DNA of 13,879 nt from a virus (taxonomy: Duplodnaviria; Heunggongvirae; Uroviricota; Caudoviricetes), in the IMG/VR virus record IMGVR_UViG_2703718788_000009. One strand, given 5' to 3'. Positions 309 to 13,879 of the stretch are shown here, piece after piece (the first letter of the stretch is position 1; each line of letters begins with the position of its first letter). The translations under genes and the position numbers were made by a program. The notes beneath the pieces were generated by a model. It saw only the letters and a program-made list of their open reading frames with translations. It had not been told where the DNA came from and ran no database searches.

Positions 309-2438
309 ATGGCAATGAAGGAAGTCGCCAGACTAACAAACGTTATTTACTGGGATTCTGATAAATCCTCCTGGCGAAAAGAAGTTAAACGGCTTGAGGA
401 TTATAAAAAATCCTGGAAGAAAGCCACCGACGATATTGCTAAAGCTGATTTTAAGTCTAATCAGGCTGTGCTCAGAACACAAAGAACACGCGCTAAGGTG
501 GAAGAGCAGATCGCCAGAGCACAGAAGAAACAACGTGCTCAGGCTGTCAGCCGTCTGACCGGAGGCAATAATCCGGAGCTCTCCTCTATGCGCAAGTTCT
601 ATCAGCAGCAAGCCAGAGAAGCCGCCAGACAACAAAAACTGTTAGATCGTAGTGTTGGAGATGTTCAGCACAGAAAAGCACGTGTAGGGGCCAACAGTGC
701 ACGAATCAGCAGCATGTTTGATGGCTCTCTGGTTGCTCAGTTCCAATCCAGAATTCAGAGAGTTAATGCTGATTATGCTAAAGGGGCTATCAACCTGCAG
801 ACCTATAATCAGAAAATGGCCCGACTCAGAGCTGAAATGAAGATGGCATCTAGAGATGCCACCACCTTTCAAGGCAAGCTAGATAAACTGGCAGCAGGTG
901 CGAGCAAGGTGCATAACAATATCGGCAAGCTTAACAGTGCTTTAGGCAAGATAGCCATTGGCCTGACCGCTGCGGGATGGGGTATTCAGAGAGCTGTCAG
1001 CAGTGCTATGAGCGCTCAATCTGACCATAACTCAGCCTATTATGGTTTGCTTGCTCAGAACAAGGATGATAAAGCCAAGACTGACCAACAGATGGCTTTT
1101 ATCGACAGAATCTCTAACGATTATGGGATGGATCAGCGTGAGGCTGAAGGCGGCTTTATGCGCTTTGCTGCAGCCACACCGAACGTAAAAGAGGGTGATA
1201 AACAGGCTCTCTTTGAGGCTATGGCTATTAAAGGTCGCTCAGTGGGTGCTACTGCGGACCAACAGAACAGGGCTATCGTTGCACTAGGGCAGATCTATAG
1301 CAAGGGCGGTCGAGTGTATGCGGAAGAGCTTAAGGGCCAACTTTCTGAAGCCCTGGCAGGCTCTCAGGTAGATTTCACCCGTGCGGCTATCGATGCCGGA
1401 ATCATCAAGAAAGAGGAAGAATTTAATAAAGCCCTTGAAGATGGCAAGATCACCATGGACAAGCTTCTTCCCTCTCTGGTGAAAATTTGGGGTGCTGCAA
1501 AAGAAACTGACGCTTTTGCTAAATCCATGCAGCAGCCAGAGGTGGCACTGCAGAGAATGAGCAACCAGTTTTTTAAACTAAAGCAATCCTTTATGGGTGT
1601 TGTTGATCCAACTGATAACGTTATTACCCTTTCTGAATCCCTGATCTACATCTTCGAAGACTTATCATCAATTTTCAGCGGCTCAGGTGAAGATGCCAAA
1701 TCACTGGGGGTTATGCTGGGTGAGGCAATGGATACAGTTTACACCCGTGCAGTTTGGGCTATTTGGTGGATTAAGAAGATCGCTAAAGAAATCGGTGAGA
1801 TGTTCAATCTGACCGCACAGGATGCAGGAAGTTGGATAGGCACAATTGTTACCGCTATCATGGGCCTGAAGGTTGCTGGAAGCGTGGCAGGCATGGTGGG
1901 CGGCCTTATCTCTATGCTGTGGAAGCTTGGATCAGCGATCAAGGCTTTATTAGTTGGTGGCGGTGTTGGTGATATCAGCACTGGGGGCACACCAGGTAAG
2001 GGCAAACCAGGTAAAGGCGGTTTAATCGGGAAAGTAGGCAGACTGGGAAGGTTTGCAGGTCCGGCTGCAGTTATTGCTACCGGATTCGATATTGCTAATG
2101 GTCTGGATGCATACTGGCAGAATCCTGATAATCAGCGACAGGAAGGAGTTAAACACCCGGAATGGCTAACCAGCATAGTTAATGGTGCTTCTAGCTTCCT
2201 CGGCCTTGATTATCGTCTCGATGCAGGACGCTACATTACCAGACCAACACCGACGGGTGGAATGGCTATTCAGAATGGTGGCTATCAACCAGTTCAGGTA
2301 AATGTAGTTCCACAAGGTGAGATTTCCGGCAAATGGGAGATAACCATTGATGAGGGTGGAATTGCCAGGGTGATCCAGAAGGAAGTCAGCGATCAGTTGG
2401 ATTGGAAAGCCACACAGGAATCTAATCAGCTTTTCTAA
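309..2438 (+). CDS. phage tail tape measure protein (lambda gpH-like)
   Basis: 709-aa ORF with SD 'gaggt'. Charged, Ala/Gln/Lys-rich N-terminal half, two hydrophobic helices (WIGTIVTAIMGLKVAGSVAGMVGGLISMLW), then a Gly-rich segment (GGGVGDISTGGTPGKGKPGKGG). The segment EEFNKALEDGKIT resembles lambda gpH 'EELNKALKDGKIL', recalled from memory and not verified. Confidence 0.75.
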   Translation: MAMKEVARLTNVIYWDSDKSSWRKEVKRLEDYKKSWKKATDDIAKADFKSNQAVLRTQRTRAKVEEQIARAQKKQRAQAVSRLTGGNNPELSSMRKFYQQQAREAARQQKLLDRSVGDVQHRKARVGANSARISSMFDGSLVAQFQSRIQRVNADYAKGAINLQTYNQKMARLRAEMKMASRDATTFQGKLDKLAAGASKVHNNIGKLNSALGKIAIGLTAAGWGIQRAVSSAMSAQSDHNSAYYGLLAQNKDDKAKTDQQMAFIDRISNDYGMDQREAEGGFMRFAAATPNVKEGDKQALFEAMAIKGRSVGATADQQNRAIVALGQIYSKGGRVYAEELKGQLSEALAGSQVDFTRAAIDAGIIKKEEEFNKALEDGKITMDKLLPSLVKIWGAAKETDAFAKSMQQPEVALQRMSNQFFKLKQSFMGVVDPTDNVITLSESLIYIFEDLSSIFSGSGEDAKSLGVMLGEAMDTVYTRAVWAIWWIKKIAKEIGEMFNLTAQDAGSWIGTIVTAIMGLKVAGSVAGMVGGLISMLWKLGSAIKALLVGGGVGDISTGGTPGKGKPGKGGLIGKVGRLGRFAGPAAVIATGFDIANGLDAYWQNPDNQRQEGVKHPEWLTSIVNGASSFLGLDYRLDAGRYITRPTPTGGMAIQNGGYQPVQVNVVPQGEISGKWEITIDEGGIARVIQKEVSDQLDWKATQESNQLF

Positions 2439-2939: not shown

Positions 2940-3392
2940 TCAGCCTCTCCCAACATTTGACCAGTATTTGATTGCACCGATCAAATCATCATAGTGGCGC
3001 ATTGCATCATTGAAGCCTTTATAGCTTGCCCATTGTGGTGAAACTTTGTTATTGCTGAATTGCCCACTAATCAGGATAGTCTCCAAAATGTCGGCGTATC
3101 GCTTGCCAATTCGCTTTCTGACGGCCTCAGAGCTCCCACCCTTTACGATTGCATTAATCAGGGCTTTTGTGTGTCTCAGGCTCTCATAGAGCATTGCAGC
3201 GTGGGCAGATTCCATAAAGGAGCGCTTAGGCAGATCACCCCACCCCTCAGAATGGATAGCCGCCAGTGTGGCGTAATTCAGGCCGCTATAGTGTTTCCCG
3301 TCATCCCAGCCAACCGCTACACCTTCCATCTGTGAGAGCTCTTTATGCAGCTTATCCATCATGCGCTTGTCTATGGTGCAACGGACTTTCAT
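2940..3392 (-). CDS. hypothetical protein, possibly virion morphogenesis or head-tail joining
   Basis: 150-aa ORF whose ATG overlaps the upstream gene's stop in an ATGA arrangement (translational coupling). It is the last gene of the minus-strand structural operon. The functional guess rests on context only. Confidence 0.5.
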   Translation of the reverse strand: MKVRCTIDKRMMDKLHKELSQMEGVAVGWDDGKHYSGLNYATLAAIHSEGWGDLPKRSFMESAHAAMLYESLRHTKALINAIVKGGSSEAVRKRIGKRYADILETILISGQFSNNKVSPQWASYKGFNDAMRHYDDLIGAIKYWSNVGRG

Positions 3393-4168
3393 TTTGTAGC
3401 ATCCTTGGCAAACTTGGCCTGCCTTTGCTGTTTCCAGGCGCTATCAGCTGCGTCATAGTTGCCGCCGTTTTCCTCTAACAACGTGTTAAAATCTTTAGTC
3501 TTAGCCGATGGGGTGTTGGTTGAGTTCCCTACGTTGCTATTCTTCTCAGCACTGTTAACAGCACCCTTTTGCTGTGTTTTGTTCACCTTCTTGCTGTTAG
3601 TGAAGACTCCGGCATTTTCGACCATCTTCACCTTGAAGGTGCGGAATTCTTCAAAGGTGCAATCAATAGTGATGCAGTCACCAGAGGAAGAGCTACGCTT
3701 AACTTCACATTTCGTCATGATGAAGTTCTCAAGGAGTCCGGCATCTTCACTTACCAGGCTAACAAGCTGGCGCTTGTCTCTCATTTCCATAAGTGCCTGA
3801 ACAGCGGCGGCAGGGCGCATAGATTCACGGGGATTATCTGGATCAGTGTTCCGGTCAATGTAGTTCTCTTTCCGGATGATATGAGGAGAAGAGGTAACAA
3901 TACCCGTAAAGCTGACAGATTTATCTTTAATGACGGCATGGTCTGACATGGTGGTGCCATCCTCGACCGCATAGCTCGATTTCTCAACAGGGAACGAATA
4001 GCTGACATCAGAGATAGAGTCAAAGAAGATAGCCACGTTATCGGTATAGTTGAAGCCATCCATTATATTTTTGTTTTGTGAATATCCCCCACACATAACA
4101 GTGAATGCAGGAGATCTCGATTCAGCTTGTTTTGCAGCTGTCAGAGCATCACTAGCCATATTAAACAT
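3389..4168 (-). CDS. hypothetical protein, possibly a virion structural component
   Basis: 259-aa ORF. A GGAGG sits 1 nt before the first ATG and about 10 nt before the second ATG (4159), so the true start is probably 4159 (MASDALT...). Ser/Thr/Asn-rich, with a Lys/Asn-rich low-complexity C-terminus. Confidence 0.55.
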   Translation of the reverse strand: MFNMASDALTAAKQAESRSPAFTVMCGGYSQNKNIMDGFNYTDNVAIFFDSISDVSYSFPVEKSSYAVEDGTTMSDHAVIKDKSVSFTGIVTSSPHIIRKENYIDRNTDPDNPRESMRPAAAVQALMEMRDKRQLVSLVSEDAGLLENFIMTKCEVKRSSSSGDCITIDCTFEEFRTFKVKMVENAGVFTNSKKVNKTQQKGAVNSAEKNSNVGNSTNTPSAKTKDFNTLLEENGGNYDAADSAWKQQRQAKFAKDATK

Positions 4169-4264
4169 GCCTCCAAAATGAATCTTTTCGTTGCCCTGCT
4201 TAAAATCTGCAGAAAATACAGGGCAGTTATTCGTTAGAATCGCTTATAGCTCTTCCCGAGAGCG

Positions 4265-4525
4265 TTATTTTGCAAAACGATTATGGGCATTCAGGGCTTT
4301 TTTGCGGTCCTGGGCTTGTTTGCGTGCAATAAAATGTTCGAAAGTCTCGGCCCAGGTGCATTTATTATATTCACGGTATTTATGCATAGCCTGGCGGCTA
4401 ACGTCATAGCAGGCGGAAAATGTGGAGATACGCAGGAATTCCGGCAGATCCTCGTCATCGATATGGATAATATCAAAAGGCACGTCGTCACGGTCGCCGT
4501 ATAAAACAATTTTCATAAAAGACAC
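4265..4525 (-). CDS. hypothetical small acidic protein (about 83 aa from the ATG at 4516)
   Basis: The track start at 4525 is GTG; the ATG at 4516 has SD 'gaggtg' 6 nt upstream. First gene downstream of repeat copy B. Confidence 0.5.
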   Translation of the reverse strand: MSFMKIVLYGDRDDVPFDIIHIDDEDLPEFLRISTFSACYDVSRQAMHKYREYNKCTWAETFEHFIARKQAQDRKKALNAHNRFAK

Positions 4526-4548
4526 CTCAAAAACTTAAGACGGGGATT

Positions 4549-4595
4549 ATGAGTCCTTCCAGGACCTTAGCTAAAGCTAAGCCCTTTGGGTCTGT
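4549..4595. repeat. 47-bp repeat, copy B
   Basis: See copy A (57..103). Lies between the capsid-gene terminator and the next minus-strand gene. Confidence 0.85.
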
Positions 4596-4602
4596 GGATA
4601 AT

Positions 4603-4663
4603 AAAAAAGGGAAGAGGGAAAGACCTATCCCCGATCTCTCACCTCTTCCCTTTGCTTTTATTT
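4603..4663. terminator. bidirectional rho-independent terminator downstream of the capsid gene
   Basis: 9-bp stem gggaagagg (4609..4617) / cctcttccc (4642..4650) with a 24-nt loop; flanked by A6 (4603..4608, a U6 run on the minus strand) and 'tttgcttttattt' (4651..4663). Confidence 0.65.
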
Positions 4664-4679
4664 GGCCTTCGAAGAAGGT

Positions 4680-5729
4680 TTATTTAGCCTTGGCTTTTGC
4701 CAGAGCAGCGGCGGCGGCGTTTTTAACACTCACTTTAACCACAACTTCGGGCATCATGTTCATGAAAGCATAAGAGGATTCAACGAAGATTTCTCGTTTG
4801 GCTCTGGACTCTTCCATATACATGAAAGCTTCACGTGCAGCGCCGTTTGCAAGCTTCAGGTTGCGAGCGCAAGGGCCGAAAAATTGAGTATAAACGCCCA
4901 CCATATCGCCTAACGCATGCGGCTGGAACTGTGGGACCAGATAAGCAGTATTCTCTGGCAGACTATCCATTTGCACCACACGCAGAGCTAAGCCTGGAAT
5001 GCGGAAAGTCGGGAAGCCCGGCAGAATATCCTCAGGGAACATCAGACCTTTATCAGTGATATTCTGATTGCCGAACAACAGCACTTTTCGCAACAGTTCA
5101 TCAGTCTGAATTGCAGCAAAGAGCTCAGCACGGCAGAACAGGGTGAAACCACGCAGAGCGCGAACGACACCACGCTGTTTAACCTTGCTCAGCGCAACCA
5201 GGTCCTGCAGCTGTTTAAGGATATCTTTAGCTAAATCCACTTCTGAGGTGGTTTGCTGTGCGCCCAGCAGTTCGCACACATTCAGTTCTTTACCCTTGGT
5301 GAGGATAATTTTGTTCTCAAAGAGAGCAAGCTGGCGTGCTTCTTCATGGGTCTGGCGTAAGCCTTCACCAAGCTGAATAACACGACGAGCGGTTACAGAC
5401 TCTAAATTCTCTTCGGAATCTTTGCCCGGAACACGGATACCCTGCCAGTCAGAAGGATAAATAGCACTTGATGCGGCAGTGAATGCCATATCACCCGTGC
5501 CCGTTTCACGCTCATCTGCGGTAATGGTAGCCATCTGTTCACCGTAGCGCGGATACTGACCGAAAGCGGTTTGTTTCACCTGGCGAACTTTGTCATATTC
5601 AAATTTAAAGGTATTGCACAGAGCAGTAGTGTTGAAGATATCCATTGCTGAAATAATCTGGTTATCCAGCGGGATGTCTTTAATCAAGCCACACAGATCG
5701 CGGACTTCGAATTCTTTTTTCATCTCCAA
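4680..5729 (-). CDS. major capsid protein (lambda gpE-like)
   Basis: The likely start is the ATG at 5723 with AAGGAGG 6 nt upstream; the track start at 5729 is TTG. The segment SLPENTAYLV and the C-terminal 'REIFVESSYAFMNMMPEVVVKVSV' resemble lambda gpE 'FLPDNTMVLG' and 'REFTMIQSAPLMLLADPDEFVSV', recalled from memory. About 347 aa, preceded by a small beta-rich protein. Confidence 0.7.
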   Translation of the reverse strand: MEMKKEFEVRDLCGLIKDIPLDNQIISAMDIFNTTALCNTFKFEYDKVRQVKQTAFGQYPRYGEQMATITADERETGTGDMAFTAASSAIYPSDWQGIRVPGKDSEENLESVTARRVIQLGEGLRQTHEEARQLALFENKIILTKGKELNVCELLGAQQTTSEVDLAKDILKQLQDLVALSKVKQRGVVRALRGFTLFCRAELFAAIQTDELLRKVLLFGNQNITDKGLMFPEDILPGFPTFRIPGLALRVVQMDSLPENTAYLVPQFQPHALGDMVGVYTQFFGPCARNLKLANGAAREAFMYMEESRAKREIFVESSYAFMNMMPEVVVKVSVKNAAAAALAKAKAK

Positions 5730-6070: not shown

Positions 6071-6195
6071 TTGATCACCTGCGATTTAAATTAACTCCCC
6101 TCAAAGAGTTCCGGTATAACCTCTCAAACCACGACAGGCTCGGGCCGAAAAGTTATGCCGGAAATCTAAAGGGAAATTGATACAAGGAGAGGGAG

Positions 6196-6225
6196 ATAGC
6201 CCCGCACCGTCCAAGCGGGGGCTAT
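6196..6225. other. GC-rich stem-loop in the capsid-operon leader
   Basis: atagccccgc / gcgggggctat pairs as a roughly 10-bp stem with one bulge and a 9-nt loop. No U-tract on either strand, so not a classic terminator. Confidence 0.35.
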
Positions 6226-6548
6226 TCCACATGGGGAAACCGACAACAGTCGGATGATAGTTCACAGTATGGGTTACGGTTACTAGAGAGCACTATCACG
6301 AAAGGCACTCCCCCGAATCAGTTCAGGCTGCGGTCACATCAGCGGGGAAATACCTTTCGGGATAGCTACCCACACAGAAAACCCGCAAAAGAAAACTGTG
6401 TGGATAACTAGCCCAATAGGAGAATTAATCGACCACTCAACGATGATCAGGGTAGTGTTATTTATAAGGCGGCACCGCTACCTGGTCGCCTTTACTTTGG
6501 AGGAAAATACGGCAAATCACTTTCACCATTGATTTACGGTATATGTAT

Positions 6549-6577
6549 ATTATATCAGTATTCTCTCAAATTGTCAA
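6549..6577 (-). promoter_or_regulatory. perfect-consensus sigma70 promoter (TTGACA-N17-TATAAT) on the minus strand, directed at the capsid operon
   Basis: The reverse complement of 6549..6577 reads TTGACA atttgagagaatactga TATAAT, with an AT-rich stretch upstream. Predicted start near 6540, about 470 nt before the ATG at 6070. Confidence 0.6.
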
Positions 6578-6841
6578 CACCCTGATTATATAAATTCTAA
6601 TAATTAGCGTAGTAACGGTATTTTCAGACTGCTATCAATCCCATCAATACGTCACCCCCACCCTTTAGATGCATACATCCGACCTACTTTGTAGGCTTGG
6701 CGTACTGCCAAGGTCGAAGCTATGCGACTCATATCTATCACCACTTTATAAAGCTTGATAGATATCTTTTGATCAATATCAATGTTTTCCGGGGATTTAC
6801 CCGGCTATAGTTCGAATCAAGGAAGGGGAGCATTGATAGAG

Positions 6842-6890
6842 ACACCCAAAGGGGTGACTGAAAGTCACCTGGCATAGCCAGTGAAAGCAC
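6842..6890. repeat. 50-bp repeat, copy A (palindromes GGTGAC-N5-GTCACC and CTGGC-N3-GCCAG)
   Basis: About 42 of 49 positions match 12072..12120; lies about 45 bp upstream of the ATG at 6934. Confidence 0.8.
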
Positions 6891-6933
6891 CCAACCGAAC
6901 AAACAAATCAACTTCTCGCAAAAGGTGATAGTT

Positions 6934-8162: not shown

Positions 8163-8182
8163 CCACACCTACCCAACCTACC

Positions 8183-8216
8183 AGGGCCACCACTTAGGAT
8201 GGCCCTTTTTATTTAT
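8183..8216 (+). terminator. rho-independent terminator of the 6934..8162 module
   Basis: 7-bp stem agggcca / tggccct with a 10-nt loop, followed by 'ttttatttat', 21 nt after the stop codon. Confidence 0.7.
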
Positions 8217-8220
8217 GTGC

Positions 8221-8280
8221 TATTTAATACCCATTTATCCCCTATTTAATGCCTATTTATTGATTTAATCCGTTTTATGC
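8221..8280. repeat. phased TATTTA(A/T) repeats at roughly 11-bp spacing; possibly bent DNA or an architectural-protein site
   Basis: tatttaatacc / atttatcccc / tatttaatgcc / tatttattgat / ttaatccg / ttttatgcc in succession. Confidence 0.4.
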
Positions 8281-8340
8281 CACAACCGCCCGGTTGACAG
8301 AGTAAGAGAGAGGGTGTAACCCTTTTTCGTAATACTAATA

Positions 8341-8360
8341 AAATCAATAAGTTAGCTTAA
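8341..8360. repeat. copy 2 of 20-bp repeat 'aaatcaataagttagcYtaa'
   Basis: See 2449..2469. Confidence 0.7.
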
Positions 8361-9368
8361 TAAGCCTTTTCTCTATTTTTGTCAAATTTAACATACCCTA
8401 AAAAACTGCAAAATCTGACTGCAAGATTATCTGCAGCTGGATTTCTTACACCTCAATTTGTGGTATCACCCTGACTAGTTTGTGCATAAAATGAACAGTT
8501 TTTAACATTTCCTATTCACCTGGTAACCACACAAAAAGCTAAAAACGAGGCACAGATAATCTTAGAGGCCTGTTTTCTTGTTATCACTATGGGAACGTCG
8601 TAGAAGTGATTTTGATGAAAGATGACCTACCCTATTACACCCCCATTTTTTGTTATCACAATTGCATCCTGTGCGGTATATGGCTGTGTGCTGAAAGCGG
8701 TCTTGGGTGTGGGTGTCAGAAATATCCATTAGCGGTATTAATACCCGTCAGATGTTCGTCTGAGGTGCCAGGCAGGCGCTCCCCCACCTCCCTTTTTTCT
8801 TCTAACAATTCTCAAATATCACACCACTGCCCACCACGTTGCTATTATGTTAATTCTTAAGCTTTGCTGTATGTTGTGCACATTATTTATTCAGGTGCGT
8901 GTACGTAAATTCTGGGCCTCCTTATCATGATTTTTAAATCAGATTTTGTAGTGCGCTTTATTAGTGTAGATAAGATCTATTATGTTAAATGCAATTTTCC
9001 CAACCCTTCAAATCAATGACTTACATGTAAGCATGCACTAACACCCCACACAGCACATTAGACGTGTAGATGTCTATATCCCACATTTTTGATTGTTTTG
9101 TAGTCATTCCCCTGATCATTTAACCAGTATAGTTTGCTATCTGCAGACCACAAAATCGGAATTTACATCTGATTAACATAATCTGTTAGCATGATCACCA
9201 TTACCCACACAACAATAACCCCATGCAAGCCTCTTTAGGCAATTTATCGGCGTGTTGGTGTGAACAGTCTTTCATGTTCTTTATGTATTCATGACTGCAA
9301 GGAATGTATTCATTGGCCTGTGTGGGGGAAGGATGGACTGCCCCAGGGGCCATACTTATGATGCCCGG

Positions 9369-9404
9369 TCAACATAAGTGTTGATAAAATCAAGGGGTGT
9401 TGAT
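9369..9404. promoter_or_regulatory. pair of adjacent inverted repeats (TCAACA-N4-TGTTGA and ATCAA-N6-TTGAT); candidate operator
   Basis: Both have perfect arms; they sit just upstream of the iteron cluster. Confidence 0.4.
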
Positions 9405-9426
9405 CTGCATATTTCCCACACATGAG

Positions 9427-9456
9427 AGGAAATCAGAGCAAAGAGAGAGGAGAGAG
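9427..9456. repeat. polypurine (GA-rich) tract
   Basis: A 30-nt run of almost only A and G on the plus strand. Confidence 0.5.
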
Positions 9457-9465
9457 GTTTGTTAG

Positions 9466-9520
9466 TCAAAATCAAGTCACATTAGAGTCAAATCAAGTCA
9501 AATCAGATGCAATCAATCCC
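9466..9520. repeat. cluster of 'aatcaagtca'-type direct repeats
   Basis: gtcaaaatcaagtca, gtcaaatcaagtca, aatcagatgca, aatcaatccc in tandem. Confidence 0.6.
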
Positions 9521-9521
9521 C

Positions 9522-9586
9522 CACCTGTTGGGATTTCCCACATGTTCAACCATACACAGGAGCTAACCTGTTGGGATTTCCTACAC
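9522..9586. repeat. two copies of 'acctgttgggatttccYaca', 45 bp apart
   Basis: 9522..9541 and 9567..9586 are near-identical. Confidence 0.7.
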
Positions 9587-9639
9587 CTCTTGCACATACC
9601 CCGGAAGATTTTTCCGGTGTGCCATCTTTGCAGGCTCCA

Positions 9640-9807
9640 ACCTGTGAAGAATTTTCACACCTGTAAATCCATACAGCACGGTAAAAACTACCGCACCACC
9701 TGTCAAAATATTTTACTACCCCACCAATAATACGGCCCATACCTGTAAAATATTTTTACTACTACCTGTCAAAATCTTTTACTACTACCTGTAAAAATAT
9801 TTGACAC
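9640..9807. repeat. iteron array with ACCTGT core (part of the candidate replication origin)
   Basis: ACCTGT occurs at 9640, 9659, 9698, 9741, 9764 and 9787, plus 9523 and 9566 in the preceding repeat. The last four sit in units of about 23 bp, 'acctgt(c)aaaatattttactac', three of them directly tandem. Confidence 0.7.
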
Positions 9808-9839
9808 TAATAGATAAAGTAACAGACCACACAATAGAT

Positions 9840-9865
9840 CCCCCCCTAACCCCCCCCCCAGGGGG
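9840..9865. repeat. homopolymer tracts C7-TAA-C10-A-G5, bracketed by GATC sites
   Basis: Read directly: gatcccccccctaacccccccccaggggg, with GATC at 9837..9840 and 9876..9879. Confidence 0.8.
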
Positions 9866-9902
9866 AATGGGGAGGGATCAGAGAGTGGGGAAGGTTTATC
9901 AA

Positions 9903-10027
9903 TATATCAAATTGATATACTTAGCTAGATGTATCAATTAATACACTTAAAGGTGAGCAATGCTTAGCTAGATGTATCAATCCGATACACTTAGAATATT
10001 CTAGATGTATCAATTAATACACTTAAA
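9903..10027. repeat. 17-bp perfect palindrome followed by three direct repeats of about 30 bp
   Basis: Palindrome tatatcaa-a-ttgatata at 9903..9919; repeats 'ctagatgtatcaat..atacactta' at 9920..9951, 9963..9994 and 9999..10027. Confidence 0.75.
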
Positions 10028-10906
10028 TCACGTAACTTATTGTATTTATTAAGAAAAGTCATCTACCTATATATACTACTGATTCGCCTCCGCTCATCAT
10101 TAGTATGGTGTAACTGATTCATGCTTCGCTTACGCTCACATTCATCTACTTACACCCCCTTATCTGAATTGAACATTCCCGTCCAATCCAGCTAAGAGAA
10201 TTGATTGAACATTACCTAACATCCGTTAGCTAACATTCTAATCAATTAACTACTTAAACACTTCCACACCTTCCGGTGGTGCCAAGTAACCTGGCATGGT
10301 GGGAAAAGATTCTGCCGTTTTAGGTAGAATTGATTTCCCACAAATAGTAAGTGTCGGCCCTTCAATGTCACTCTCCTATGAGGGGAGAGATGACGGGCCT
10401 CCTGTGTGGGTGAGTATCGGAGCAGTCTGTGAAGTATGAGCAGGCTGTGAGATACGCTACTGTATATCTGCGTAGAACAGCCTCCGCTGTTTACGCTCTT
10501 TGTGTGGTCCGGCGAATGCGTCAGCATGAGGCCCACATGTGGACCGCTGCCGAAAGCTTGCCAGCGCCGGAAGGAGGCAGCAAAGAGTCTCCCGCGCTCA
10601 TGTGTGGGCGTATACGTAAGATATACATTCATAAATCCAATCCTAGGCCCCTAAATGGCCTTCTGGCTGCATTAACCTGTGTGAGTAGTGCAATTGCATT
10701 ACCTGATGCTTAAATCGCGTTGTAGGGCCTCTCATAGAGAATTTAACTATCAAGATAAAAATTGCAGATCGGTCTATTGACAATCTTATTGCATAAATGC
10801 TATAAGTTATTCTGGTTTTGACACGGTAGGGGCCATTAATAATGCTTACCCCCTTTGCTGTGGACTTGCTTGCACCTATAGCACACCTAAATGATAATAA
10901 TTCTCA

Positions 10907-10935
10907 TTGACAATTGGTTGACAATATGATAAGAT
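10907..10935 (+). promoter_or_regulatory. candidate sigma70 promoter (TTGACA-N17-TAAGAT) upstream of a small ORF
   Basis: Consensus -35 at 10907..10912, a 4-of-6 -10 at 10930..10935, and a second overlapping TTGACA at 10918. Confidence 0.35.
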
Positions 10936-10970
10936 TATAAATAGGGGGAGAAACAGATCCGGAGGTCAAT

Positions 10971-11120
10971 GTGGAAATTACTGATGCAATAGCGATCATC
11001 AACCTGGCTGTACTGTGGTGCGGTGTTGCCTACATAGCCGGAGTAACTGCAATAGACAATCTTGAAGAAAAAATGATAGATAAATACAAAAAGATTGTTG
11101 ACAATTTGACGAATGTTTGA
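10971..11120 (+). CDS. small membrane protein (49 aa, GTG start), possibly holin-like or toxin-like
   Basis: GGAGG 5 nt upstream of the GTG; VEITDAIAIINLAVLWCGVAYIAGVTAIDNLEEKMIDKYKKIVDNLTNV has one transmembrane-like helix and a charged C-terminal tail. Absent from the ORF track. Confidence 0.3.
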   Translation: MEITDAIAIINLAVLWCGVAYIAGVTAIDNLEEKMIDKYKKIVDNLTNV

Positions 11121-11126
11121 TAAAAT
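11098..11126 (+). promoter_or_regulatory. strong sigma70 promoter (TTGACA-N17-TAAAAT) for the leader and Rep operon
   Basis: -35 at 11098..11103, a 17-nt spacer, -10 at 11121..11126. Confidence 0.6.
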
Positions 11127-11176
11127 ATAAAGCATAGGGTAATTCTCAGCATGTGAATTTTCCTTAAACAGACTAG

Positions 11177-11206
11177 CGGGGCTTGTCTTGAGTCCCGTTT
11201 CTTTTT
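11177..11206 (+). terminator. intrinsic terminator or attenuator in the leader between the promoter and the first operon gene
   Basis: Stem cggggc / gtcccg (one G-U pair) with a 9-nt loop, followed by 'tttcttttt'. It lies about 45 nt after the predicted start and 44 nt before the ATG at 11250. Confidence 0.55.
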
Positions 11207-11249
11207 AAACCTACATCGCACAGGCGATGAGCTGACAGGAGATTGAATC

Positions 11250-11459
11250 ATGGCTAAAACCGGACCGATAAGCCAGCTGGTAAACTGGACTACTGACGAA
11301 ATCGTCGAGAACGTGCTTAAAGGTAACTTTCGCAAAACTTCCGTTTATGCATTTATTCGAAAACACAAAGGAGAATATCCACACATTGAAGCGGCAATAG
11401 AAAAATTAAACTTTATTAAACTTGAGCGCCAGCTTGAAAGATATAAACACCTACTTTAA
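11250..11459 (+). CDS. hypothetical small basic protein, possibly a regulator; first gene of the Rep operon
   Basis: 69-aa ORF with SD 'aggag' 8 nt upstream. Confidence 0.55.
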   Translation: MAKTGPISQLVNWTTDEIVENVLKGNFRKTSVYAFIRKHKGEYPHIEAAIEKLNFIKLERQLERYKHLL

Positions 11460-11495
11460 TAAAAGGTAACCGTAACCCGGTAAGAGGTAAACATT

Positions 11496-12410
11496 ATGAA
11501 TATTGAGTCTGTTTTTAATATAACTTTAAATGATGATCCTAGTATCCTTTTGCTGCCAATGCTCATAAATAAATCTGGACTATTAAAAAGAGGCGACGCA
11601 AGGGATATCTATATTTACATGTGGAATACTTACTATCTCCACGCTAAAAAAGAGGCCGCCAAGGTGTTCAGCAAGAAGACTAAAGGAAGAAGCCTCAGCC
11701 AGGATATGAAAAACTCCATCAGAAAAGAGTGTTTTGCTATTAAAGATAAAGATTCCTGTGTGGAGATCTCTTATAAGGATATAGAGGAAAGAATTGGAAT
11801 ACTGCGACCAAATGCAGTAAGGGCAATTAAAAAGCTGGAATCTGAAGGAATTATCACCTGCCTTAAAAAAGGCAATAAGCATAACCCTTATGCATCATGG
11901 CAAATTAATGTCGGAATCTTTGAAATGATGGAAAGAGTAGGGATTGAAAACCTCATTGGGTGGGATCTCTTAAAACCATATTGGAAGAAAGAACAGGAAG
12001 CAGCCGGAAGAGGGGAGGGGGCCAAAGCTCCACAGGAAGCTCCAAAACAAGCCGCACAGCAGCCTGAAGACACACCCGAAGGGGTGACCGTAGGTCACCT
12101 GGCTAAGCCAGCGAAAGAGTCCAAAGTGGTGCAATTCCCTTCTGTGAAAGATAAAGACGTTAGCGTAGAGCACAACTCTTATTCCGAAAGTGTGACAACG
12201 TCACCTGTTAAGGCAAACAAGAAGGAGGCATCTAAAGTGATAGATATTTCTTCTTTTATGGCAGATGAAGATGATACGCAAGATGTGTGGTATACACCTT
12301 CAGAAAATGATTATAGTGGTAGTGGTGGTTATGATCCTTATGGCTATGATGAGGATGAATACAACCCATTTGAAGATGAATATACAAATGATTCCGCTAT
12401 CCCTTATTAA
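11496..12410 (+). CDS. putative replication initiator (winged-helix, lambda-O/RepA-like N-terminal domain) with a long disordered acidic C-terminal tail
   Basis: 304-aa ORF with SD 'agagg'. The segment 'VEISYKDIEERIGILRPNAVRAIKKLESEGIITC' resembles the winged-helix DNA-binding domain of lambda O 'RITDSQLSEITKLPVKRCNEAKLELVRMNII', recalled from memory. The C-terminal 140 aa are low-complexity and end in ...EDEYTNDSAIPY. Confidence 0.55.
   Translation: MNIESVFNITLNDDPSILLLPMLINKSGLLKRGDARDIYIYMWNTYYLHAKKEAAKVFSKKTKGRSLSQDMKNSIRKECFAIKDKDSCVEISYKDIEERIGILRPNAVRAIKKLESEGIITCLKKGNKHNPYASWQINVGIFEMMERVGIENLIGWDLLKPYWKKEQEAAGRGEGAKAPQEAPKQAAQQPEDTPEGVTVGHLAKPAKESKVVQFPSVKDKDVSVEHNSYSESVTTSPVKANKKEASKVIDISSFMADEDDTQDVWYTPSENDYSGSGGYDPYGYDEDEYNPFEDEYTNDSAIPY
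12072..12120. repeat. 50-bp repeat, copy B, embedded in the Rep-like coding sequence
   Basis: Matches 6842..6890; encodes ...TPEGVTVGHLAKPAKE... in the disordered tail. Confidence 0.8.
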
Positions 12411-13564: not shown

Positions 13565-13879
13565 ATGAATATTGAAGAAATGATAGTTGAATTCGAAGAG
13601 GGTGATTTCCTGGAAGATGGGGAGTTTAAATACTCCCGTTTTAAACAGGCGTTATTTAGCAGCGATGATAAACCCCACGTTAGTGATCTTAATGACGATG
13701 ATTTATGTCGTTGGGTATGCACCCGCTTATATGAGGATGGAAAATATACAGGCCAAAACTTTCCAAATCTCTATTTCAAAGCACAAACATTTGAGGAAGG
13801 GCAAAGAGTGAAAAACCTGATCGATAAAATGCTTTCAGCCGGATATTTGCATGCTGAAAGCAAGCGCCATTATATTTTT
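13565..13879 (+). CDS. 5' part of the junction-spanning ORF (acidic protein; continues at 1..120 if circular)
   Basis: ATG at 13565 with SD 'gagagga' 7 nt upstream; open to the window end. The overlapping track ORF 13587..13811 is in another frame and looks spurious. Confidence 0.5.
   Translation, partial: MNIEEMIVEFEEGDFLEDGEFKYSRFKQALFSSDDKPHVSDLNDDDLCRWVCTRLYEDGKYTGQNFPNLYFKAQTFEEGQRVKNLIDKMLSAGYLHAESKRHYIF
13859..13879. other. 21-nt terminal redundancy identical to 1..21, marking a circular junction or assembly overlap
   Basis: 'agcaagcgccattatattttt' occurs at both ends of the window. Confidence 0.9.

Follow-up and report, generated by a model that had tools for sequence, protein, structure and literature searches.

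The current analysis concerns a short control region within a 13,879-nucleotide (nt) stretch of viral DNA (IMG/VR record IMGVR_UViG_2703718788_000009, class Caudoviricetes), which is referred to here in its entirety as the window. Along its plus strand, this region carries a promoter (P1), a small open reading frame (ORF) for a membrane peptide (ORF49), a second promoter (P2) embedded in the end of that gene, a short leader folding into two hairpins, the latter of which resembles an intrinsic terminator, and then a series of genes beginning with ORF69 and a putative replication gene (Table 1). A sequence-only reading of the same DNA had described P2, the leader and the terminator, and proposed that a replication operon is governed by attenuation; our results partly support that interpretation. 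Conservation was assessed in 34 related records from E. coli and Shigella, all of them circular elements of ~13.5 kb (L001-L034), which collapse into 26 distinct sequences between P2 and the first ATG and 15 distinct leaders.

Two features anchor the region, namely P2 and the terminator. P2 scores 11/12 plus TG in the promoter scan, and window-wide there is one other site of at least 11/12, a 12/12 match on the minus strand at 6577-6549. Both P2 hexamers and the 17-nt spacer length are invariant in the 26 distinct variants (34 records) while the spacer sequence varies at at least 8 positions, and two variants carry an improved -10, TATAAT. Transcription is predicted to start at ~11133. Taken together, all sites returned by the promoter scan are at chance level (23 in the window vs 26 in shuffles), sites of at least 11/12 arise at 0.31 per dinucleotide shuffle, and a site of that quality followed within 20-120 nt by a hairpin of at least 8 pairs plus a T-tract was encountered in 0 of 150 dinucleotide shuffles. 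The hairpin and U-tract downstream of P2 form the top-ranked terminator-like site in the window scan. The stem has 10 pairs, including 3 G.U and, by the scan's count, 5 G-C, and is followed by UUUCUUUUU; the hairpin is worth -13 to -15 kcal/mol. The sequence TTCTTTTT is invariant across the 34 related records, and four versions of the hairpin occur with the same U-tract after each. One version has an extra G in the 5' arm paired with an extra U in the 3' arm, another has a G.U pair converted to A-U and a shortened loop, and CP134895 and L019 carry an unrelated stem, GCUGGG/CCCAGC, before an identical U-tract. On the minus strand, the window's three G.U pairs would turn into C.A mismatches, from which we infer that the hairpin is selected as plus-strand RNA and not as a DNA palindrome. 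The site displays the canonical features of an intrinsic (Rho-independent) terminator, with termination itself a prediction. The d'Aubenton-Carafa terminator score was discarded as evidence, since it is uncalibrated with modern energy parameters.

By every in-silico criterion that we used, the promoter and the terminator are real. The near-consensus promoter (TTGACA-N17-TAAAAT) and the hairpin with U-tract ahead of the first ATG that had been described from the sequence are both confirmed, the first being conserved in relatives and the second lying 42 nt before the ATG. The hairpin had been placed about 45 nt from the promoter, which needs correction, as it starts 49 nt after the -10. The estimated leader size of 75 nt agrees with a terminated P2 RNA of 72-75 nt (~74 nt), a figure that depends upon the predicted start.

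In all 15 leaders, folding predicts a 5' hairpin (SL1) joined through an A/U-rich linker to the terminator hairpin, which is worth -10 to -15 kcal/mol and ends in a long U-tail. The SL1 inner helix is swapped for a different helix in L017 and L018, and a G.U pair becomes A-U in L016. Within the leader, variation is greatest in the linker. Hfq-dependent small RNAs (sRNAs) show this same succession of 5' hairpin, A/U-rich linker, terminator hairpin and U-tail, and the suggestion that the terminated transcript might itself be a small RNA is in keeping with the leader folds. The same cannot be said of attenuation or antisense control. When the terminator helix was forbidden in five leader types by constrained folding, both of its arms stayed unpaired and the full 10.4-14.9 kcal/mol was lost, so we find neither an antiterminator nor a pre-emptor. 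There is no conserved leader ORF, the only candidate being an AUG-UGA at 11151-11156 that has no Shine-Dalgarno (SD) sequence and is missing from most relatives. A search of the opposite strand for a countertranscript, as had been proposed, gave a best minus-strand site of only 7/12 in 11170-11500. The Rfam scan of the whole window returned no match in this region at E<=1, a permissive local scan returned only terminator-driven matches (at most 17 bits vs gathering scores of at least 41), and no covariance model of a riboswitch, T-box or other curated cis-regulatory leader matched.

The sequence-only reading had overlooked P1, a promoter about as good as P2, together with ORF49 itself. In 13 aligned relatives, the P1 hexamers never change but the spacer does, and P1 is predicted to drive the 49-amino-acid (aa) ORF from a position upstream of the same terminator as P2. 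No terminator lies between ORF49 and 11175; consequently, P1 transcripts should end at the terminator at 11175-11206. The ORF49 product consists of one hydrophobic helix and a charged tail and is an annotated coding sequence in relatives, where 22 nucleotide alleles encode 14 proteins through mostly synonymous changes, a pattern that indicates clear purifying selection. It has no Pfam, NCBIfam or PADLOC family match, and a role as a type I toxin-like peptide or an exclusion peptide is conceivable. The gene and P2 are physically interleaved: the P2 -35 is located in codons 43-44 of ORF49, whose TGA stop at the same time provides the TG in front of the P2 -10. Among the 22 alleles, third positions vary at 0 of 13 codons in the stretch 33-45 vs 14 of 24 in codons 1-24. 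This invariant stretch (11067-11105) holds an A-rich, UP-element-like tract and the P2 -35, which points to constraint at the nucleotide level over both. The cause of this constraint is ambiguous, as a weak site on the minus strand (TCAACA-17-TATCAT, 11101-11073, 9/12) lies in this stretch too. We considered that site as the antisense promoter of a type I toxin-antitoxin system of the hok/sok kind; no minus-strand terminator was seen.

Table 1. Positions of the control region and of other features named in the text (window coordinates).
Feature	Position	Strand	Description
P1	10907..10935	+	predicted sigma-70 promoter, TTGACA-17-TAAGAT with TG; 10/12 plus TG
ORF49	10971..11120	+	49-aa membrane peptide; GTG start, ribosome-binding site GGAGG 5 nt upstream
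Synonymously invariant ORF49 stretch, codons 33-45	11067..11105	+	equals -66 to -28 of P2
P2	11098..11126	+	predicted sigma-70 promoter, TTGACA (11098-11103)-17-TAAAAT (11121-11126), extended -10 TG (TGA precedes)
SL1	11135..11166	+	5' stem-loop of leader RNA; predicted in all 15 leader variants
Linker between hairpins	11167..11174	+	A/U-rich, single-stranded; at least 5 versions
Intrinsic terminator (predicted)	11175..11206	+	10-bp stem 11175-11184 / 11190-11199, 5-nt loop, U-tract TTTCTTTTT 11198-11206
Gap from terminator to ATG	11207..11249	+	42 nt; SD AGGAGA 11237-11242; ATG at 11250
ORF69	11250..11459	+	first gene past the terminator; small four-helix protein
Rep-like gene	11496..12410	+	304-aa winged helix-turn-helix protein, putative replication initiator
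P2 twin	6549..6577	-	TTGACA-17-TATAAT, 12/12 with TG; perfect consensus
Tape-measure gene	309..2438	+	
Neck/tail-completion, Dit-like and major head protein genes	2940..5729	-	
CCCACAC copies	4088, 6369, 6984, 7321(-), 8707(-), 9045, 9204, 9320(-), 9415, 10404(-), 10602(-)		

Downstream of the terminator, plus-strand genes extend from ORF69 and the Rep-like gene to additional small ORFs and, past the circle junction, to the end of the tape-measure gene at 2438. ORF69 has no family match, and its AlphaFold model (pLDDT, the predicted local distance difference test, 88.7) matches no fold in the PDB. For the Rep-like protein, PHROGs of the 'replication initiation O-like' type were matched at E-values of 4e-5 and 1.8e-4; matches to the MarR/CodY helix-turn-helix (HTH) stayed sub-threshold, and relatives give a weak HTH_36 match. 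The earlier label of 'Rep operon' is weakly favored by the O-like matches and the hint of a winged HTH, and no PDB relative was found. The contention that there is no room for a second promoter before the operon holds up well. The 42-nt gap offers neither the length nor the matches that a sigma-70 promoter would need, no sigma-70-like site of at least 9/12 occurs in the 1.5 kb past the terminator (window and relatives L001, L011, L012, L015 and L033), and a relaxed promoter scan of both strands across 10850-11500 revealed no internal plus-strand promoter. Since there is no such site in the next 1.5 kb, terminator read-through appears to be the only visible route into the downstream operon, a conclusion drawn from the absence of promoter-like sites. 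The module past the leader is highly mosaic among relatives (L002-L034). The gap itself is highly variable, falling into 3 types, the Rep-like proteins have two unrelated-looking N-termini (MNIESVF... and MA[NSG]N..FTP.F....), and in some elements ORF69 and Rep are separated by an additional gene encoding 128-166 aa. Recombination joints are found directly past the terminator, the window itself being a patchwork at ~11207-11214 and ~11460.

The explanation that we consider somewhat probable on balance is that a fixed, default-on terminator passively attenuates two strong promoters located before a putative replication operon, yielding an sRNA-like ~74-nt RNA as a by-product. P1 (10907) and P2 (11098), judged by their consensus matches and conservation, would act as tandem sigma-70 promoters firing toward the terminator, and transcripts from both would run into the conserved hairpin and U-tract, which presumably is active. 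P2 would thereby generate an abundant short RNA composed of the 5' hairpin, the A/U-rich linker and the terminator hairpin, while P1 would generate a ~265-nt peptide mRNA having its 3' end in common with the P2 RNA. ORF69, the putative Rep and the tail genes as far as the tape-measure gene would be fed only by the minority of P1 and P2 transcripts that escape termination, as the missing promoter-like sites suggest. As the leader has no built-in sensor, in the form of a competing fold, a leader peptide or a countertranscript promoter, the device would be a fixed attenuator, and very strong promoters would in effect be turned into a low supply of replication proteins while the plasmid is carried. 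Some basal expression of the replication genes is needed, because these elements are stably carried plasmids. More speculatively, any boost, such as during helper-phage infection, would have to be supplied in trans, by a factor that either renders RNA polymerase resistant to the terminator or masks the 5' arm of the hairpin. Passive promoter-proximal control of this sort is a familiar and ordinary kind of bacterial control element. By sequence, the unit is a member of none of the IsrK, DapZ or lambda PR'-6S-tR' families.

Several considerations weigh against this explanation. The start site, the termination efficiency and the read-through fraction are all predictions, and the assignment of the Rep-like protein as Rep is weak. 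Ending the ORF49 unit may be the main purpose of the terminator, and an activator-dependent or non-sigma-70 promoter may lie in 11160-11250; in some relatives, sites of 9-10/12 do occur near the end of ORF69. Conservation of the two-hairpin shape suggests that the short RNA has a function of its own, and a passive attenuator leaves that shape unexplained. Lastly, the repeat type in the putative origin (see below) differs among relatives, with no obvious tracking of the two Rep families.

If the short RNA does have its own function, P2 could be producing a stand-alone trans-acting sRNA, a 3'-untranslated region (3'-UTR) product of the ORF49 gene like DapZ, which would regulate host, helper-phage or plasmid mRNAs and would probably bind Hfq, with read-through being secondary. 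This is compatible with passive attenuation, and although we regard it as rather unlikely, we hold it to be the foremost of the alternatives. The promoter of DapZ is located just before the stop codon of its parental gene and its terminator is shared with the parental mRNA (PMC9438474). Viewed from the side of the upstream gene, DapZ and MicL are the closest known systems, given a promoter at the upstream coding sequence end, a common terminator, a length of ~75-80 nt and a terminator hairpin with a U-tail. Here, in contrast, an operon with no visible promoter of its own begins 42 nt past the terminator, which thus doubles as a 5' leader. Also in favor of an sRNA are the shape retained by 15 of 15 leader variants, the replacement of the SL1 inner helix by another helix in L017/L018 and the predicted great strength of P2 (11/12, TG and an upstream A-tract). 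However, no target was found within the element. When the leader RNA was compared with the whole element on both strands, using the window and L019 types, the top matches lay on untranscribed strands or in non-homologous places, and complementarity was at chance level for 9-11-mers (~7 9-mer matches expected in the window by our own estimate, ~9 distinct ones observed). The divergent CP134895-type leader shares no best match position with that of the window, and the linker, which would be the seed, is the least conserved leader part. Two individual matches were also rejected, a strong RNAduplex match at 6181-6240 that reflects an unrelated GC hairpin and a 9-nt match between the linker sequence AAACAGACU and 11506-11514 (Rep codons 4-6), which is at chance level and lacks an equivalent in the majority Rep family. 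A related possibility is that the short RNA acts upon its own read-through mRNA, either opening a closed ORF69 start or promoting termination, in the style of IsrK or P4 CI. IsrK of the Salmonella prophage Gifsy-1 is a short sRNA that ends at a Rho-independent terminator of its own, some of the transcripts continue into a small ORF and downstream genes, and its leader sequesters the downstream ribosome-binding site, which the short form opens in trans (PMC4825925). No other known system is as close in architecture, with an sRNA ending at its own terminator and read-through into a small ORF and mobile-element genes, and in several variants pairing is possible between AAUUUCCU in the leader and AGGAGAUU in the SD region. 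Even so, across 22 variants the real leader occludes the SD no more strongly than do shuffled leaders, there is no Q-like gene nearby, and neither a conserved complementarity to downstream sequence or translation start regions nor an Rfam C4 or IsrK match was found; the chance-level AAACAGACU match adds nothing in this regard. The immunity RNAs P4 CI, P1 c4 and N15 CA are likewise sense-strand sRNAs, derived from leaders and controlling premature termination (PMC4825925). They resemble the present unit in arising from the leader of a replication or anti-repressor operon of a satellite or phage-plasmid, but they undergo processing and base-pair with complementary sites (seqA/seqC) in the transcript from which they derive, a complementarity that is missing here. 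The Rfam C4 family covers C4-type phage immunity RNAs, and the leader does not match it. Action of the short RNA upon its own mRNA accordingly strikes us as very improbable.

A switch based on regulated antitermination, like lambda PR'-6S RNA-tR', would keep the Rep-to-tail operon near silent until a factor encoded by the element or a helper modifies RNA polymerase at or near P2. In lambda, the strong promoter PR' yields a short terminated transcript before a long operon and Q provides antitermination, while in PR-cro-tR1-O-P the O initiator gene is located behind a terminator, tR1, that is Rho-dependent. The parallels to lambda and lambda-dv are a strong promoter with a short terminated transcript ahead of a long operon, in this case one of 5 kb ending in tail genes, and an O-like initiator gene behind the terminator. 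The terminator is devoid of an intrinsic switch, so any regulation must occur in trans, and the satellite-like gene content (capsid, tape-measure, Dit and neck genes with no terminase or portal recognized) is in line with this reading. A -10-like TAGGGT at ~+3 to +8 might be a promoter-proximal, sigma-dependent pause element. This TAGGGT (11135-11140), which also forms the SL1 5' arm, is present in most variants and absent from the CP134895-type leader. No nut or qut site and no Q-, N-, RfaH- or LoaP-like protein was recognized in any ORF by Pfam, PHROGs or NCBIfam, a weak negative given that several ORFs are unassigned; in addition, the terminator is intrinsic, no helper phage is known, no DNA match to the element exists in 50,697 phage records, and the plasmid must express Rep for its maintenance without helper or induction. 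We judge such a switch unlikely, albeit compatible with passive attenuation. Less likely again is that the terminator merely closes and insulates a 'moron-like' P1-ORF49 unit and that the operon uses its own unrecognized weak or activator-dependent promoter in or just past the hairpin. ORF49 with its own promoter and terminator is indeed a self-contained unit, the 42-nt 5'-UTR is exchanged as a module together with ORF69 alleles, and weak sites do exist, for example TTGTCT-16-TTAAAC at 11183-11210 as read from the sequence. These sites score poorly, however, and the sequence they occupy differs among relatives, and insulation leaves a second, stronger and conserved promoter 49 nt before the hairpin unexplained. 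Combining several of these ideas, we also consider as a doubtful prospect that the ~74-nt P2 RNA, made constitutively from the end of the membrane-peptide gene, is the master regulator of an undescribed group of plasmid-borne phage satellites with capsid and tape-measure genes of their own, acting in trans on plasmid, host or helper transcripts while the terminator holds the replication-to-tail operon at a trickle until a helper-phage antiterminator arrives. If true, the sRNA and the terminator would together amount to a 'quiescence' switch unlike P4 CI, IsrK and pT181. The least credible of all is the countertranscript-driven or leader-peptide attenuation originally proposed (pT181/pIP501 or trp type). 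In pT181 and pIP501, the leader contains an antisense RNA promoter and a pre-emptor that blocks terminator formation by default (PMC5703833). The present unit has in common with them a terminator-like hairpin and poly-U just upstream of the first gene of a putative rep operon, which would limit Rep synthesis at the transcriptional level. The antisense promoter and the pre-emptor were both sought here and not found, the leader is ~75 nt vs several hundred, and its sole 'ORF' is the poorly conserved AUG-UGA at 11151; hence, attenuation of either type is not supported by the sequence comparisons.

The only promoter in the window that surpasses P2 is its twin on the minus strand, which is also detectable as a repeat (I1) having 72% identity over 46 nt with 11084-11129. 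The two promoters have in common GTTGACAATTTGA...TGATA.AATATA. The twin heads the capsid operon via a ~470-nt untranslated leader (6071-6548, minus strand) that has no terminator; at ~6196-6220 this leader contains a GC hairpin, AGCCCCGC...GCGGGGCT, with no U-tract. Several motifs were considered and rejected. As a repeated operator, TTGACAAT has 14 matches with at most 1 mismatch vs 17.6 expected, and its second copy, in the P2 spacer, is lost in relatives. The P2/P4 late-promoter dyad TGT-N12-ACA occurs with N13 in the window and is missing from relatives, the T4-late motif TATAAATA is present in 2 copies vs 0.81 expected and is not conserved in relatives, and an RfaH ops-like GGCGGT past the terminator is not conserved and is on the wrong side of the terminator.

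Compared with the control region, the element around it is the more unusual. Bases 1-21 of the window are identical to bases 13859-13879 (repeat D10), and since this 21-bp overlap is shared by both ends, the window represents one full circle of 13,858 bp. Its close relatives are circular "plasmids" of E. coli of 13.2-13.9 kb, found in 7 of 5426 complete E. coli genomes, all of them plasmid-borne and 0 chromosomal; one record, CP043822 (39.6 kb), has three matching places and looks like a trimer. Wider collections contain hundreds of ~13-14-kb contigs from E. coli and Shigella, whereas the Rep protein, like the DNA, is without a match in the phage records and no wider relatives turned up in IMG/VR or the GTDB representative genomes. 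The family appears to be confined to E. coli and Shigella. Besides the structural genes listed in Table 1, the element has the putative Rep, iterons and a number of genes for small HTH proteins; a terminase, a portal and an integrase were not recognized. Sequence identity of the capsid protein to its counterparts in myoviruses of 133-150 kb, such as Serratia phage Kashira and Acinetobacter phage ABPH49, is no more than ~22-25%. Because capsid, tape-measure, Dit and neck genes are present without a recognized terminase or portal, the gene content suggests a plasmid-borne phage satellite of E. coli and Shigella. Our literature searches found no published description of this plasmid or satellite family.

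A number of further sequence features were observed elsewhere in the element. The 2.7 kb from 8163 to 10906 is dense in repeats and has no ORF annotated in any relative; it is probably an origin and/or a packaging region. It includes four copies of a ~23-nt repeat, ACTACCTGTCAAAAT.TTTTACT, at 9695-9808, three CTAGATGTATCAAT units at 9917-10027, two copies of ACCTGTTGGGATTTCC.ACA at 9523-9585 and a C/G-run at 9840-9880. The heptamer CCCACAC, a candidate protein-binding motif, is found in 11 copies vs 1.18 +/- 1.07 in shuffles, with 7 of the copies inside this ORF-free region. A 57-nt direct repeat (D3; 6838-6894 and 12068-12124, 81% identity) is rich in short palindromes (GGTGAC..GTCACC and CTGGC..GCCAG), and one of its copies is inside the low-complexity middle of the Rep-like gene. 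Another direct repeat of 55 nt (D2; 57-111 and 4551-4605, 89% identity, GAGTCCTTCCAGGACCTTAGCTAAAGCTAAGCCC.TTGGGTCT) has its first copy just upstream of a 61-aa HTH ORF and the tape-measure gene, and its second between the capsid gene and the minus-strand ORF that follows. On the minus strand at 2485-2525, a hairpin with a U-tract occupies the interval where the tape-measure and neck genes converge. It coincides with the sole Rfam match in the window, a sub-threshold one to ctRNA_p42d (23.6 bits vs 50), and is most simply viewed as the terminator of the minus-strand operon.

If passive attenuation is indeed the principal role of the unit, it would set the amount of both the replication proteins and the downstream tail proteins in a carried, cryptic, phage-like plasmid of E. 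coli, and removal of the hairpin should raise plasmid copy number or burden. A single RNA segment would then serve in three roles, as the 3' end of one gene, possibly as an sRNA, and as the 5' leader of the next operon. Together with the twin at 6577, P1 and P2 would offer a handle on how this uncharacterized family of elements is switched on.

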